From IMG/VR virus record IMGVR_UViG_3300045918_000131, positions 30,249 to 94,248 of that record: a stretch of DNA of 64,000 nucleotides. One strand, given 5' to 3'. This DNA is from a virus. Both the position numbers and the translations under genes were made by a program. The notes beneath the pieces are model-generated. The model saw only the letters and a program-made list of their open reading frames with translations, was not told the DNA's origin and ran no database searches. Position 1 is the first letter of the stretch; every line of letters starts with the position of its first letter. Positions 58,387 to 63,910 of the stretch are shown in pieces.

Positions 58387-59436
58387 TTATACATTTCTCA
58401 TAACCAAAGCATCTGAATACTCTTTCCATTTGTGCGGAAAGCTCTTATACAAGTCTGCTACTTTAATTGCAGTTCTCAATGATGTTTCGCGAAGTTTAGG
58501 TTGATTGGCAAATAAGAAATCAATGATTTCATCTTGCTGACTTTGATCAAAGTTATAATCTGTAAATAACTCTCCGGAATTTGCAATTTGACGAATACGC
58601 AATAGTTTTTCACGTGTAGTGTCAAGTGTCAAATCTAAATAGTGGCAACGCGATTCAAGTGCAGTTAAATGATCTTTTAATGTTTTGGAACGAATATTCT
58701 CAAACTTGATGTTAGTAATAAAGATAATACTGCCTTTAAAATTAAAAGTTTCTGGAATACCGTCGCGCCGCAATGCGCTAGATTCACTGTTCCAACAAAT
58801 CTTTCGTGTCTTACTCGTATCCAATGCTGCCTTCAACAAGTTTAACGACAAGTCATCATAAAAAAGACCATCGGCGTCATCAAAAACCAGAACATTATCC
58901 TTATCACTGAATTGGTACAGTTTTTGATACAGGCCGATAGGTGTCATTGCACCTTTAATTACTTCAGAACGTATGCGGCGTCCGGCGATTTTATCAAATA
59001 ACGAAGCACGTTCTAACTCTTTCTCAACGCCGTATGATTTGCCTATTCCGGCCGCGCCCGTTACGATCATTGCACGTATTGACCCTTCACATGTTGCTCG
59101 TGTCATTTCATGTAATATGTCAAAACGATTTCCAATACGTTCCATAATTTGTTCATCGGTTTCTGTTGCAACTTTACTTGTCTCTGTTGTATCGTCGCTA
59201 GGAATAACACCTTGTGCTATAAAAGCCTCAACATCCGAAAATTCATAATCTGTGATATTATTTAACTTTACGCGGATGCTCGTCTTCTCGTCACCAAACA
59301 TATGAGCACCATTAACAGTAATGAACGCATCCTTGTCGCCATATTTAGAATACTGTTTTATTAAAGGGAATACTATATTTTTAATAGATTGCCCACGATA
59401 AACGCCGTTCTTAATATTAACATAAGTAGAACTCAT
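58387..59436 (-). CDS. P-loop AAA-like ATPase
   Basis: GAAGIGKS, VLVFDDAD, LLKAALD, IFITN, ALESRC. Confidence 0.85.
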   Translation of the reverse strand: MSSTYVNIKNGVYRGQSIKNIVFPLIKQYSKYGDKDAFITVNGAHMFGDEKTSIRVKLNNITDYEFSDVEAFIAQGVIPSDDTTETSKVATETDEQIMERIGNRFDILHEMTRATCEGSIRAMIVTGAAGIGKSYGVEKELERASLFDKIAGRRIRSEVIKGAMTPIGLYQKLYQFSDKDNVLVFDDADGLFYDDLSLNLLKAALDTSKTRKICWNSESSALRRDGIPETFNFKGSIIFITNIKFENIRSKTLKDHLTALESRCHYLDLTLDTTREKLLRIRQIANSGELFTDYNFDQSQQDEIIDFLFANQPKLRETSLRTAIKVADLYKSFPHKWKEYSDALVMRNV

Positions 59437-59460: not shown

Positions 59461-59502
59461 TTTAATAAAGCTATTATACACTATATAACCAAAAAGTCAA
59501 GA
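59461..59502 (-). promoter_or_regulatory. Early promoter cassette (copy 4)
   Basis: TTGACT-16 nt-TATAAT-AGCTTTATTAAA. Confidence 0.8.
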
Positions 59503-60053: not shown

Positions 60054-60106
60054 TTATTTAATAAAGCTATTATACGTAGTAATAACCAAAAGGTCAAGAT
60101 CTTTAT
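60054..60106 (-). promoter_or_regulatory. Early promoter cassette (copy 5)
   Basis: TTGACC-17 nt-TATAAT-AGCTTTATTAAATAAG. Confidence 0.8.
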
Positions 60107-60253
60107 CCAAACGAATCAGAGCAAAGTTATAGTAGTTGTTACATAAACCTAAACGAAGAGCGTTCGTAGAACGTCATTATAACCATTAGATGTATAATCA
60201 ATAACTTACAATTTTAATTAACTACTTGATAATATTAGAGACTTGAATATATG

Positions 60254-60484
60254 TTAGTTTGAAGGATTATCTGCAGGCAATACTTCCCCCGGAAGTCGGT
60301 CAACATAATAATCTTTATCCTCGACTGCCACAATAGAGACCTGCTTCATTGTTTGCGGAAATTTCGCATGATCGCAATCACACTTGATTAATGTACATGC
60401 TGTTTCTTCTCCATTGGCTTTTCTATCTAACTTTGAGAGAAGCGAAAGCAAATTTCTACGACTTAGATATACTTTATTCATCAT
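60254..60484 (-). CDS. Small hypothetical protein
   Basis: LSRRNLLSLLSKLDR...AVED.DYY.DR.PG. Confidence 0.6.
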   Translation of the reverse strand: MMNKVYLSRRNLLSLLSKLDRKANGEETACTLIKCDCDHAKFPQTMKQVSIVAVEDKDYYVDRLPGEVLPADNPSN

Positions 60485-60601
60485 TAACAGTTCCTGTTAG
60501 TCATTGTCCGGCCCAATACAAAGCCCACTACTATGCTAAAAGATGAAAAAGTAAACATTGTATATAATAAGACCAAATCATTCATCATTTTTTCCATCCT
60601 T

Positions 60602-60772
60602 TAAGAAAAATATGGAATATCCACATACTGACATTTAGGACAACACATAACTGCAATGCGACCTACATAGATTTCAATATCACAATTAGAAGCGTAGTTA
60701 TCTTTACCTCCAATAGTGAATTCTTCCATCTCATCGCATAAGTTTCCTTCGTCTGCGTTTGGACATTTCACT
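60602..60772 (-). CDS. Small zinc-ribbon protein (56 aa, GTG start; coordinates approximate)
   Basis: Manual translation MKCPNADEGNLC...IAVMCCPKCQYVDIPYFS. Confidence 0.5.
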
Positions 60773-60933
60773 GTTTTTCATCCTTTCTTAATTCTTTTAC
60801 CATGCTAAATGCGTGTCGAATACAATCATCTACTGTAAGATTTTGCTTTGTTTGGTCTAGGCTAGACACACTGTCTTTCATTTTCATATGCGGTAGCCAC
60901 TCAGTCGCAAACTCAATTAAAGCCGCGATGTTT

Positions 60934-61236
60934 TCATCTCGACCCTTTCAGTGCTTCTTCGCACATTCTACGAATGGTAGATTTACTTTCATAGTCACAG
61001 TCAGACATAAAGTATATGCGTTCCAAGTGTTCTCGCAATCGGGCATTCTCTGCTTTTAATTCATCACTTTCCTGCATCAAGACTAAATTCTCAGAATCCA
61101 GTTTATTCATTTTAAAGGCGTACATTTCTTGCAGCGTATGGGCGAAGGCTCTTATCTCCTCTACAAATGTCTGAGTACTGTTTGTTTCGCACCGAATATC
61201 TATCCAAACTTTGTCTATCTCTTGGTCGTTCATCAT
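60934..61236 (-). CDS. Coiled-coil hypothetical protein
   Basis: ELKAENARLRE heptads. Confidence 0.55.
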   Translation of the reverse strand: MMNDQEIDKVWIDIRCETNSTQTFVEEIRAFAHTLQEMYAFKMNKLDSENLVLMQESDELKAENARLREHLERIYFMSDCDYESKSTIRRMCEEALKGSR

Positions 61237-61376
61237 TCACCCTTTCATTCGCCGTATTCATATCCACTCATAATCATTTCTCCTTTAGTTAAATTATTTC
61301 GCTGCTAAACGGATTTGCTTCCGAAGCGTCTAGTGTTTTCTGATCGATCATTTATACGCGCCCGCTCAACTCTACG

Positions 61377-61619
61377 TTAGACCACATTGGTTGCCATGCA
61401 CGCAAGCTCTTTCAGTTCTTCGTTGATTGTTTCCCTGTACAGAGGCCTCCGCGAGGCTATGCAGCATGTGTCCCTAAATTGCAAGTCAGCTATATGAATA
61501 ATCACCGATGCAACAAATCGCATCAATTCTGCGTTGTTAAACTGATAGCATTCCTCCCCATCTGCATCCTTGAAATATCCACATTCTTTTTTCGCGTTTT
61601 TGATTATGTGATCTTGCAT
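61377..61619 (-). CDS. Cassette ORF A, hypothetical
   Basis: Stop codon lies inside GTTAGAC; CGGAG RBS. Confidence 0.7.
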   Translation of the reverse strand: MQDHIIKNAKKECGYFKDADGEECYQFNNAELMRFVASVIIHIADLQFRDTCCIASRRPLYRETINEELKELACMATNVV

Positions 61620-61644
61620 GATCTTTACTCCGTAGTTAAGATTG

Positions 61645-61767
61645 GTCTAACCCGCCGTTCGAGTCGGACAGCCCGACATTTGCTTCTTTAACGCTTTCTG
61701 GTTTTTCCATGTTCATCGCTCCGTTTATAGTTCAGTGTTCGGGCTGCCGCTCAACTCGACGTTAGGC
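61645..61767 (+). repeat. attC site (complete)
   Basis: R'' GTCTAAC-5-L'' GTTCGAGT ... L' GCTCAAC-5-R' GTTAGGC; stem with two unpaired bases. Confidence 0.9.
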
Positions 61768-61769
61768 AA

Positions 61770-62024
61770 CTATGCCGTAGTTCCATAAAAATCAGCGAGC
61801 AATTTTGCTGTTTCATGGTTCCATACTGAGGCTATGTGTTTAACGTGGTCTCCGCCATGTCTGCCAATATGCAAAATGATGGTATGATCATTTGTGTAAT
61901 TTTTAACGAGCATGATGCAATCCTCAATTCCTTCTGGGTTGCGTACTTGTCCATACAGCATAGCTGGGTTGTCTTGATCTGGTATTTCATTGAAAGTTTT
62001 CGGGTAAAAGTTTACTATTTCCAT
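61770..62024 (-). CDS. Cassette ORF B, hypothetical
   Basis: Start re-assigned to MEIVNF after a CGGAG RBS. Confidence 0.65.
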   Translation of the reverse strand: MEIVNFYPKTFNEIPDQDNPAMLYGQVRNPEGIEDCIMLVKNYTNDHTIILHIGRHGGDHVKHIASVWNHETAKLLADFYGTTA

Positions 62025-62048
62025 GATGATTCTCCGTTGTAAAAAGTT

Positions 62049-62116
62049 GCCCAACCTAACAGTGAATAGGGACGGGCGAGAAGCCGCCCGCCCCTTACCT
62101 CTAAGATACGTTCGAC
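62049..62116 (+). repeat. attC site (hybrid/degenerate right end)
   Basis: GCCCAAC...GGGACGGGCG/CGCCCGCCCC stem...GTTCGAC. Confidence 0.65.
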
Positions 62117-62391
62117 ACCTCAATTAGCACATCACCATGACATGCTTTGGGCGAGCAGAAGCAAATCAAATCTTTCCCGGCAAGTTCACGTTTGGCTTCT
62201 TCTATCAAGAGCGGCTGCGAAAGTAACCATTCCTTGTATTTCGCAATCACAAGTTCACGAGTACCATACTCGCTCATAGTAAATGGATTGCCCCACTTGC
62301 TTGGCCTGCCAATGTAAACTGCGCCTTTCGGCATCCCATCTCGATATTTATTTAGTACCTTTGGCATCAGGCATTTCTCAAAAGTGCTCAT
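62101..62391 (-). CDS. DUF4326-family protein (cassette ORF C)
   Basis: VYIGRPSKWGNPF...L.GKDL.CFC.PKACHGDVL. Confidence 0.85.
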   Translation of the reverse strand: MSTFEKCLMPKVLNKYRDGMPKGAVYIGRPSKWGNPFTMSEYGTRELVIAKYKEWLLSQPLLIEEAKRELAGKDLICFCSPKACHGDVLIEVSNVS

Positions 62392-62444
62392 AAGTTCTCC
62401 TGTTTAATTAAAGTTCGTTCAGCTCCTCAACTCTACGTTAGCCG

Positions 62445-62639
62445 TCACAGTGGCATCCCTGTTTCGTCGTCCACCAAATACCCAGAGCATTTTCTGTCGT
62501 GGTATCGTGGGTTTGTTGTTCCGCACTGATGGCAAGGTGGACGTTCTGTTGGCTGGTTCCACCCGCACGGGCAATCGTGATTCTCTCCGTCGCCGCCCTC
62601 TAAATAGTTTCCGCATTCTGGGCAATATAGTTTTTTCAT
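62445..62639 (-). CDS. Cassette ORF D, Cys-rich zinc-ribbon protein
   Basis: CPECG, CPCG and CHQCG motifs; start MKKLY. Confidence 0.6.
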   Translation of the reverse strand: MKKLYCPECGNYLEGGDGENHDCPCGWNQPTERPPCHQCGTTNPRYHDRKCSGYLVDDETGMPL

Positions 62640-62662
62640 GTCTCGATCCGTAGTTAAAAGTC

Positions 62663-62720
62663 TGCTACCCGTCATTGCACGCGGACTGCCTACGGCAGCC
62701 GAGTTAACTCTACGTTAGGC
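62663..62720 (+). repeat. attC site (R'' with one base missing)
   Basis: TGCTA(A)C...CGGACTGCC-TAC-GGCAGCCG...TCTAC-GTTAGGC. Confidence 0.7.
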
Positions 62721-62915
62721 TTCAACATAGTTATATGACTCAGCATCAATTACACCTGCCGCATTCAATACTTTGTATTCCACCTTATCCATTTGCATTG
62801 TGTAAGGACGTGAAGATATCCCCCATGCTATTGCACACTTCGCTATATCAGCAAATGTAATTCCTCCACCATTTTCGTTTGATTCCCACCTAGCCTTAAA
62901 TTCTTGCTTATTCAT
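62715..62915 (-). CDS. Cassette ORF E, hypothetical
   Basis: Stop codon inside GTTAGGC. Confidence 0.6.
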   Translation of the reverse strand: MNKQEFKARWESNENGGGITFADIAKCAIAWGISSRPYTMQMDKVEYKVLNAAGVIDAESYNYVEA

Positions 62916-62972
62916 AATTCACCCTTTCTTAAACAAAATACGGAATATCTACATATTGGCATTTAGGGCAGC

Positions 62973-63047
62973 ACATAACCCCCATAGCGATTTAGACGAC
63001 AGGTGCGATAAACGACAAACACACCTGACCTCTAAGATACGTTCGAC
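62973..63047 (+). repeat. attC-like site (degenerate)
   Basis: ACATAAC...TTAGACGACAGGTG/CACCTGACCTCTAA stem...GTTCGAC. Confidence 0.55.
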
Positions 63048-63051
63048 CACA

Positions 63052-63228
63052 TCACAATTTGAAGTTTTTCGCCTTGTCGCGCTCTATGTTTTCGAGCAAT
63101 AGCCCACGTGCAACACGACGTGCAATATCCATTGATGTGCATGTCGCGATTTCTTTTCCGCGAGACTTGACCACGTATTTAATGCCTCCGGTTGTTTTGC
63201 AAAGGTATGTTGCCGCTTGATACTGCAT
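63052..63228 (-). CDS. Cassette ORF F (58 aa, not in track)
   Basis: Manual translation MQYQAATYLCKTTGGIKYVV...KNFKL with a CGGAG RBS; fits between GTTCGAC and GTCGAAC. Confidence 0.6.
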   Translation of the reverse strand: MQYQAATYLCKTTGGIKYVVKSRGKEIATCTSMDIARRVARGLLLENIERDKAKNFKL

Positions 63229-63251
63229 TTCAATCTCCGATTAAAGTAGGG

Positions 63252-63315
63252 GTCGAACCAATCATTCAAGAGGGACGCTGTAAAAGCGCAGCGCCCCTTA
63301 ATTCAGACGTTAGGC
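63252..63315 (+). repeat. attC site (complete, 64 bp)
   Basis: GTCGAAC-CAATC-ATTCAAGA...CCTTAAT-TCAGAC-GTTAGGC, the classical short attC layout. Confidence 0.9.
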
Positions 63316-63549
63316 ATCAGCCAAGTTGTAGTCACAAGGATCATCATAGTTATTTTTCGGTGCAATATTAATTTCTACGACGAGCTGGCGCACATTGCCC
63401 CAGCAAACACCCTCGACTCCTTCTGCCCATCCTTTGGCTGCATTATCCCGATATAGGTCAATCGCATTTTGTGCGCGTGTTTTCGCTTCGTCTTCCGTTG
63501 CGTGTAATTGGAAGCCATCATCTGGGTCGTAACTAAAAAATTTCATCAT
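63310..63549 (-). CDS. Cassette ORF G, hypothetical
   Basis: Stop codon inside GTTAGGC; GGAGG RBS. Confidence 0.65.
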   Translation of the reverse strand: MMKFFSYDPDDGFQLHATEDEAKTRAQNAIDLYRDNAAKGWAEGVEGVCWGNVRQLVVEINIAPKNNYDDPCDYNLADA

Positions 63550-63910
63550 TCACCTCCTTCGGTTGTGTAGCAGCTAAAATAGATAATGCATTATTGGTAT
63601 GGTCGTTTATGTCACTCACCATCTCTGGTGAGAACTTATCACCCCAAACTGTATTCAGTACGACTAATATTTCTGAATTTTTTACCAAAGCCTCACGTAA
63701 CATCGCCACTTGTTCCTGTGACTCTGCAAGCTGGGTGCGGAGGGATTCGACCAGTCCGCATTCTTCTGGTGTATAAGCTGACGGAGCTTCCAACCTCTCA
63801 ATCATGATAGCCTGCTCGTAAACTATTCCTCCGAGTCGACGGACTTCTGCCGACATGTTCTCGTGTAGTTCCTTGACGTACTTATTAGACGGTTGTCTTA
63901 TCGGCTGCAT
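63533..63910 (-). CDS. Coiled-coil hypothetical protein
   Basis: GAGGAG RBS; overlaps the next gene. Confidence 0.55.
   Translation of the reverse strand: MQPIRQPSNKYVKELHENMSAEVRRLGGIVYEQAIMIERLEAPSAYTPEECGLVESLRTQLAESQEQVAMLREALVKNSEILVVLNTVWGDKFSPEMVSDINDHTNNALSILAATQPKEVNDEIF

Follow-up and report, generated by a model that had tools for sequence, protein, structure and literature searches.

A backward array of attC-flanked cassettes in a fragment of a giant phage

The stretch of DNA analysed here (the window, 64,000 nucleotides) comprises the final 64 kb of a virus record of 94,248 bases, IMG/VR IMGVR_UViG_3300045918_000131, rated about 27% complete for a genome of roughly 350 kb. Between 61.3 and 63.3 kb it contains a row of attC sites, the recombination sites of integron cassettes, and all six genes between these sites lie on the minus strand, against the polarity of the sites. 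An earlier note had described such a backward attC cassette array in a phage from the sequence; that observation is confirmed, and the interpretation given with it is, as a whole, partly supported. Integrons are regarded as bacterial devices, with cassettes read from one promoter and in one direction, and the sites found here, of the bacterial integron family, carry reversed phage-type cargo. The explanation that we favour, and consider probable, is that the region is a cluster of attC sites lacking integron integrases (CALIN) in a phage, and that the integron integrase (IntI) of the host shuffles its backward cassettes among co-circulating phages.

The sites were scored with a covariance model, R1, which serves as a proxy attC model. 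Bacterial genomes were scanned for the L-box and core pattern of the family, and 95 distinct sites were aligned to build the model from bacterial sites only, with no input from the window. The strict pattern occurs in 94 bacterial stretches against approximately two expected by chance, and its bearers are mostly Rhodocyclaceae, Thiobacillus, Gallionellaceae, Dechloromonas, Accumulibacter and Methylobacter. With filters off and both strands of the window searched, the seven best matches of R1 all lie on the plus strand and all within 61338-63315, every other match in the window scores 9 bits or less, and R1 finds no attC in the other 30 kb of the record. The sites are as follows, with R1 scores in brackets.

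61338..61382, plus strand: left boundary half-site, L'-spacer-R' only, read from the sequence (11.9 bits)
61376-61382: R' of the left half-site, which gives cassette 1 its leading core and its gene the stop codon, read from the sequence
61645..61767, plus strand: complete long attC of 123 nt, canonical R''-5-L''...L'-5-R' (29.5 bits as a single piece; as separate matches 61645-61684 at 13.3 bits and 61725-61767 at 23.6 bits)
62049..62116, plus strand: complete but degenerate attC with R' GTTCGAC (15.9 bits, match 62049-62111)
62405..62443, plus strand: truncated attC, L'-spacer-R' plus a vestigial left arm, kept with cassette 3 in another viral contig, L016 (18.2 bits)
62662..62720, plus strand: degenerate attC with R''/L'' damaged and L'-spacer-R' intact (18.1 bits)
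62973..63047, plus strand: hairpin with a copy of the L'-spacer-R' end of site 62049-62116 (repeat family D8, 96%; folding z -3.2)
63252..63315, plus strand: complete attC and best match in the window, with boxes close to those of the attC of aadA7 (42.3 bits, E 9e-9)

The two complete sites of the earlier note, at 61645-61767 and 63252-63315, bear out what was claimed for their boxes and for the extra base in L''. The long site has R'' at 61645-61651, a 5-nt spacer, L'' at 61657-61663 (GTTCGAG) with one extra C, L' at 61750-61755 (CTCAAC), a second 5-nt spacer and R' at 61761-61767; the site at the right has R'' at 63252-63258 and R' at 63309-63315. Measured against the core consensus (R'' RYYYAAC, R' GTTRRRY), both cores of the long site agree, as do R'' at 62049 and R' at 63309, and a single departure each is seen in R' at 62110 (GTTCGAC) and R'' at 63252 (GTCGAAC); the cores of the remaining sites are degenerate. 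The R''/L'' arm carries three extra bases in 61645-61767, two in 62049-62116 and three in 63252-63315, with none on the opposite arm, and these three sites show the spacers, the L''/L' boxes and the extrahelical asymmetry of an attC, with boxes that match the sites of aadA7 and of phage TJE1. Arm asymmetry comes from a box-and-arm scanner that found three complete sites and was used for asymmetry only, AT-rich background having scored alike. All sites share one polarity, with the plus strand as the top strand. The approximately five degenerate or half sites of the earlier note hold up in so far as the others score 12-18 bits on the plus strand; the seventh, 62973-63047, goes unscored by R1 even with filters off and is not a scoring attC. 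Free-energy folding gives z values from -0.3 to -3.2 across the sites and the half-sites do not fold, which on its own is weak evidence; an Rfam search of the window returned no match, a result without bearing on the attC question.

The same family of sites occurs beside integron integrases in bacteria. An integron integrase above the NCBIfam cut-off was found in all five pattern-bearing bacterial genomes tested and in none of 14 controls, one bacterial pattern match lies 3.8 kb from intI, and beside those intI genes R1 finds arrays that head away from the integrase in the canonical direction. R1 also recovers both experimentally validated, IntI1-recombined attC sites of TJE1, on their published top strand. 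Judged by sequence, the window sites are members of the attC family found around cassettes next to intI in Beta- and Gammaproteobacteria, and the plus-strand scores obtained with this proxy bacterial model agree with the sites proposed earlier. Within the alignment of the bacterial loci (A1, L021-L114), one attC variant of 66 nt has the same or nearly the same sequence across numerous beta- and gammaproteobacterial genera and in a few other phyla, a spread that suggests a widely shared cassette pool.

The array has the composition of a CALIN, that is, at least two clustered attC sites with no intI nearby: seven model matches fall within 2 kb and are accompanied by no integrase. The set that makes up a complete integron (intI with an adjacent attI and the cassette promoter, Pc) was not found; the earlier note had seen no intI in the window, and no PF00589 (tyrosine recombinase) domain occurs in the whole 94-kb record.

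In an integrated array, R'' is expected to pair with the leading core of its own cassette and not with the adjacent core. The three complete units of the window show this hallmark, with 9 of 10 positions complementary to the own core against 7, 7 and 6 of 10 for the adjacent core; in a control array next to intI (L120), four units match their own core at 10 of 10. The own-core complementarity reported earlier is upheld for these three cassettes and is weak for the pair at 62437.

The orientation of the cargo is the reverse of the usual one. All six genes between the sites are on the minus strand, where open reading frames (ORFs) with Shine-Dalgarno sequences fill the units, and cassette ORFs that would normally read towards their own attC are antisense in six of six cases; that all ORFs lie on the minus strand, as first claimed, holds for every ORF with a Shine-Dalgarno sequence or homology. 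The stops noted at 61377, 62715 and 63310 do lie in R' cores. Orientation was counted by a junction-based call where site and gene meet; a call by ORF length was dropped as noisy in GC-rich loci. Bacterial junctions number 140 sense versus 4 antisense (97% sense), those of the other viral contigs 27 sense versus 41 antisense (approximately 60% antisense) and those of the window 1 sense versus 7 antisense. In most cases in the viral contigs, the opposite strand has a start codon and ribosome-binding site at a distance of some 20 nt from R''. A full-text literature search found no paper on antisense phage arrays. The genes of the array and its right edge are the following.

61377..61619, minus strand: cassette 1 gene, 80 amino acids, function unassigned, with a GGAG Shine-Dalgarno sequence before ATG; its nearest look-alikes are viral hypothetical proteins
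61636..61716, minus strand: micro-ORF of 26 codons with its own Shine-Dalgarno sequence, in the variable loop of the long attC
61770..62024, minus strand: cassette 2 gene, 84 amino acids, function unassigned
62101..62391, minus strand: cassette 3 gene, DUF4326 / phrog_464, 96 amino acids (Pfam E 6e-25; PHROG E 1e-40)
62445..62639, minus strand: cassette 4 gene, small zinc-ribbon-like protein (phrog_21467, E 2e-5)
62715..62915, minus strand: cassette 5 gene, 66 amino acids, function unassigned, with its stop in the R' core; a 72% identical homologue lies beside an attC in L016
62929..62979, minus strand: 3'-terminal remnant of a zinc-ribbon gene, paralogous to 60601-60771 (repeat family D2, 84%)
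63052..63228, minus strand: cassette 6 gene, 58 amino acids, function unassigned
63310..63549, minus strand: right-edge gene, 79 amino acids, phrog_21696, with its stop in the R' core

The cargo consists of small phage-type genes, co-oriented with the genes of the phage. Homology supports three of the six array genes and the right-edge gene (DUF4326, phrog_464, phrog_21467, phrog_21696 and, weakly, phrog_22349); in the protein atlas cassette 5 had no usable match and cassette 1 only sub-threshold viral clusters. Genes and sites interlock, in that the last codons and the stop of the cassette 3 gene fall inside the neighbouring attC, and the micro-ORF at 61636-61716 exits through L''/R'' to end just ahead of the ribosome-binding site of cassette 1. 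The long attC sites of the viral loci L001 (3853-3975), L005, L007 and L009 likewise carry a Shine-Dalgarno sequence and a start on the gene strand of their loop; in those contigs the frame within the site continues through R'' into the next gene, unlike the micro-ORF of the window. A leader of some 20 nt that takes in the ribosome-binding site is conserved and abuts R'' on the gene strand at 61629-61652, 62033-62056 and 62647-62670 as well as in L004, L006 and L016, and it looks as if leader and attC travel together, next to unrelated cassettes and in several phages. The remnant at 62929-62979 is 92% identical to the intact zinc-ribbon gene of L016 (2052-2127) and 84% to the window's own 60601-60651; because it is closer to the gene of L016 than to the paralogue in the window, it probably came with foreign DNA and not by local duplication.

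At least three array genes turn up again in other viral contigs, where they adjoin attC sites and have other neighbours. The most informative of these contigs, L016, is 41.8 kb long with a guanine-plus-cytosine (GC) content of 0.41 and holds a copy of cassette 3 that is 98% identical over 333 nt and differently flanked, by another attC on one side and by other DNA on the opposite side; homologues of cassette 5, of the zinc-ribbon gene and of the gene at 63533 are present as well. For the last of these (63533-63910), L016 contains at least four paralogous copies, partial or full (128-2834). L013 has the homologue of gene 63310-63549 as a full cassette, again antisense, with an attC site at each end. 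One and the same R' core, at 62441, is followed by three different right-hand neighbours. Among 85 loci with DUF4326 relatives, attC sites occur only at the two closest (90% and 71% identity), directly upstream and antisense, and the linkage to attC therefore arose in one sub-lineage only. Near-identical copies of the cassettes were found only in other viral or metagenome contigs (L016, L013, L214 and L215).

The stretch is present in three public runs from three studies (wetland, pond and wetland). In the first of these (X1), which may be the source sample of the window, a 1,951-nt contig spans 60147-62097 with zero mismatches at a depth of 16.8, equal to that of the backbone; in a different study (X2), contigs cover 61190-61482 and 61484-62097, also with zero mismatches and at backbone depth. 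Since contigs from two studies, with the coverage of the phage, span 60.1-62.1 kb, the backbone is genuinely joined to the first two cassettes and the junction is not chimeric. Beyond 62.1 kb the public contigs break at attC cores, some pieces have 4-27 times the depth of the phage, and cassette 3 reaches 450x in X1 against 17x for the phage. The chimeric host-phage join near 60-61 kb that the earlier note had named as a danger is thus ruled out over 60.1-62.1 kb, and beyond 62.1 kb the order comes from the original assembly only. Joints in the read layout that had under 30 letters to one side (61373 to 63307 and 61380 to 61647) were discounted and taken for matches to the core conserved in relatives.

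The backbone belongs to a large phage that encodes its own replication functions (two helicases, a primase and several PHROG families), nearly all genes of the window are on the minus strand, and the samples come from a freshwater wetland and a pond. GC content stays at 0.33-0.36 until about 60.7 kb and is 0.40-0.50 from there through the contig end; because of this step, the array can be said to sit in a compositionally distinct contig tail, a GC-richer, hypervariable accessory region at the end of a giant-phage fragment. The high-GC part from about 60700 also holds the non-cassette genes 60934-61236 and 63533-63910. A Megablast search of GenBank phages with 56-64 kb returned no match. Eighty viral contigs with a relative of the neighbouring gene 58387-59436 (49-66% identity, 1.08 Mb) contain zero attC matches, and the array is therefore not a conserved feature of the neighbourhood of that gene. 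Elsewhere in the window, a repeated 41-nt intergenic element contains two near-consensus sigma-70-type promoters (11 of 12 matches) on the minus strand at 59473-59500 and 60069-60097, and the giant-phage contig behind L001 has three similar copies. A TATAAAT motif resembling a T4 late promoter lies at 61350-61356 on the minus strand, just downstream of cassette 1 on the gene strand and within the boundary half-site.

How such an array could work may be pictured as follows. During infection, the IntI of the host would fold and recombine the bottom strands of the sites, here the coding strand, and cassettes would be excised and re-inserted among co-circulating phages. The backward polarity would be tolerated if the genes are expressed by phage read-through transcription and not from an integron Pc; it would be set by the founding site and need only be uniform within an array. 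The action of host IntI in trans is an inferred step, and a reasonable one because bacteria with this attC family carry intI. The attC family itself offers a clue to the host, pointing to freshwater Beta- or Gammaproteobacteria with chromosomal integrons. More tentatively, the cassettes could form a pool of the phages' own, phage genes kept as backward cassettes and moved between unrelated phages through hijacked host IntI; once captured by a bacterial integron they would be silent because they lie antisense to Pc. On this view polarity might even have been selected, since the recombinogenic bottom strand is the non-template strand of heavily transcribed phage DNA.

Several points weigh against shuffling by host IntI. 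Recombination at the array sites is presumed, and the own-core hallmark by itself does not tell which strand recombines. More than half of the sites, four of seven, are degenerate. At the left edge of cassette 3, two of the six core bases that follow the G are not the same in the window and in L016, and strict inheritance of a G|TT crossover is therefore not borne out; several boundaries of modules shared with L016 (63557, 63582 and 63739) fall outside attC. The gene order of 62.1-64.0 kb hangs on one assembly path through repeats. Finally, the PF00589 search found nothing in a record that is about 27% complete, so that a phage recombinase could be encoded elsewhere; the same search of 15 other attC-bearing viral records, three of them rated complete, found none either.

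The rival that fares best turns several of these points to its own account. It holds that the attC sites are relics that provide portable homology only, that the phage's own homologous or illegitimate recombination shuffles the modules, a way of shuffling proposed for the stem-loop elements of plastic T4-type phage regions, and that IntI plays no current part. The boundaries with L016 away from attC, the core bases not co-inherited with cassette 3, the degeneracy of most of the sites and the want of an integrase in any of the 16 viral records would all fit, as would a large phage backbone with its own replication genes. Less easily accommodated are the own-core complementarity of three units, which mirrors the intI-adjacent array and is expected from crossover in the core and not from crossover anywhere in a 16-nt repeat, the retention of asymmetric features (extra bases and spacers) in three sites, and the three different neighbours that follow the same R' core at 62441. 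On balance we regard current shuffling without IntI as doubtful.

The earlier note had gone further than shuffling among phages and proposed a direct trade of cassettes with the chromosomal integrons of the host, in which the phage acts as vector or reservoir of reverse-oriented cassettes. The attC family is indeed common to intI-bearing Beta- and Gammaproteobacteria, and bacterial arrays do contain a few antisense cassettes (4 of 144 junction calls). The trade itself was not borne out: no cassette gene of the window was found in the 94 bacterial attC loci or in four intI-adjacent regions, the DUF4326 homologues among 401 Burkholderiales genomes are all distant ones (34-43% identical, in 4 of the 401), and close copies are all on viral or unclassified metagenome contigs. 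Direct exchange with host integrons is on this evidence unlikely.

It is harder still to see the hairpins as acting mainly at the level of RNA, in mRNA processing, stability or translational coupling, with attC ancestry as an incidental matter. On the transcribed strand, every hairpin does have a stop codon on one side and a Shine-Dalgarno sequence on the other, and both the micro-ORF that stops just short of the next ribosome-binding site and the leader conserved beside R'' in several phages would suit such a role. No U-tract follows the hairpins, however, their folding z values are modest (-1.4 to -2.4), and the unpaired spacers, the own-core complementarity and the cassette-wise sharing would be left unexplained; an RNA role is improbable as the main one, and could coexist with recombination. 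An assembly artefact, in which the cassette region of another genome was joined through repeats, is the least credible explanation: the GC rise at about 60.7 kb, the position at the contig end and the fragmented, partly over-deep contigs beyond 62.1 kb would suit it, but the zero-mismatch contigs of X1 (60147-62097) and X2 (61190-62097) at phage depth, the co-orientation with phage genes, the start-region motifs that the array genes share with genes on both sides (repeat families D6 and D7) and the fragment inside the array of a paralogue of phage gene 60601-60771 all speak against it.

The array matters for three reasons. Its sites are of a bacterial integron family and its cargo is of phage type and reversed, the same cassettes recur in other phage contigs and not in the sampled bacterial genomes, and antisense orientation is common across the collected viral contigs, at about 60%, against 3% in bacteria. 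If it is true that host integrases act on these sites, phages would use integron machinery to shuffle accessory genes of their own.

Clusters of attC sites in phages have been described before. Seventeen CALINs in phages were reported, with TJE1, PH101, P12002L and MW202573 among the examples from virulent and uncharacterised phages, IntI1 recombined five of six tested sites, and phage attC clusters were proposed as a possible route for moving bacterial cassettes; antisense arrays are not discussed there (Qi et al. 2023, Front Microbiol, PMC9892861). The window array resembles these in being an integrase-less set of attC sites between small phage genes, and TJE1, whose sites R1 finds, has the same box layout. 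It differs from TJE1 in orientation, the genes of TJE1 being sense to attC and those of the window antisense, whereas the sites of MW202573 lie on the strand opposite its annotated genes and are thus antisense like those of the window. Unlike the published phage CALINs, the window array lies in a giant-phage fragment and its cassettes are shared with other phage contigs.

With the chromosomal arrays of Beta- and Gammaproteobacteria, the array shares L boxes, spacers, cores and own-core complementarity. The bacterial arrays stand beside intI, have 97% sense genes and a GC content of about 60%, whereas for the phage array neither intI nor attI was found, its genes are antisense and its GC content is 45%. 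Compared with the attC of aadA7, a paradigm IntI1 substrate whose sequence was taken from the supplement of Qi et al. 2023 (PMC9892861), site 63252-63315 has a near-identical R''-5 nt-L'' and L'-spacer-R', the additional C of L'' included. The two sites differ in their stem and loop sequences, and the gene that adjoins the phage site reads the opposite way.

Inverted cassettes are also known from sedentary chromosomal integrons, where they are mostly toxin-antitoxin cassettes with their own promoters, scattered singly in sense arrays. The likeness to these lies in a gene antisense to attC; unlike them, the window array is antisense throughout, revealed no toxin-antitoxin pair and is presumably expressed by phage read-through. 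In the plastic regions of T4-type phages, promoter-stem-loop modules are said to mediate modular shuffling, and here too repeated intergenic hairpins border small accessory genes in a large phage; unlike those modules, the elements of the window are homologous to attC, carry R and L boxes and have no consistent promoter that could be found. Cassette arrays in phages are thus already known, and the new angle is the backward orientation and the phage-to-phage sharing that it suggests, by a mechanism that we infer.

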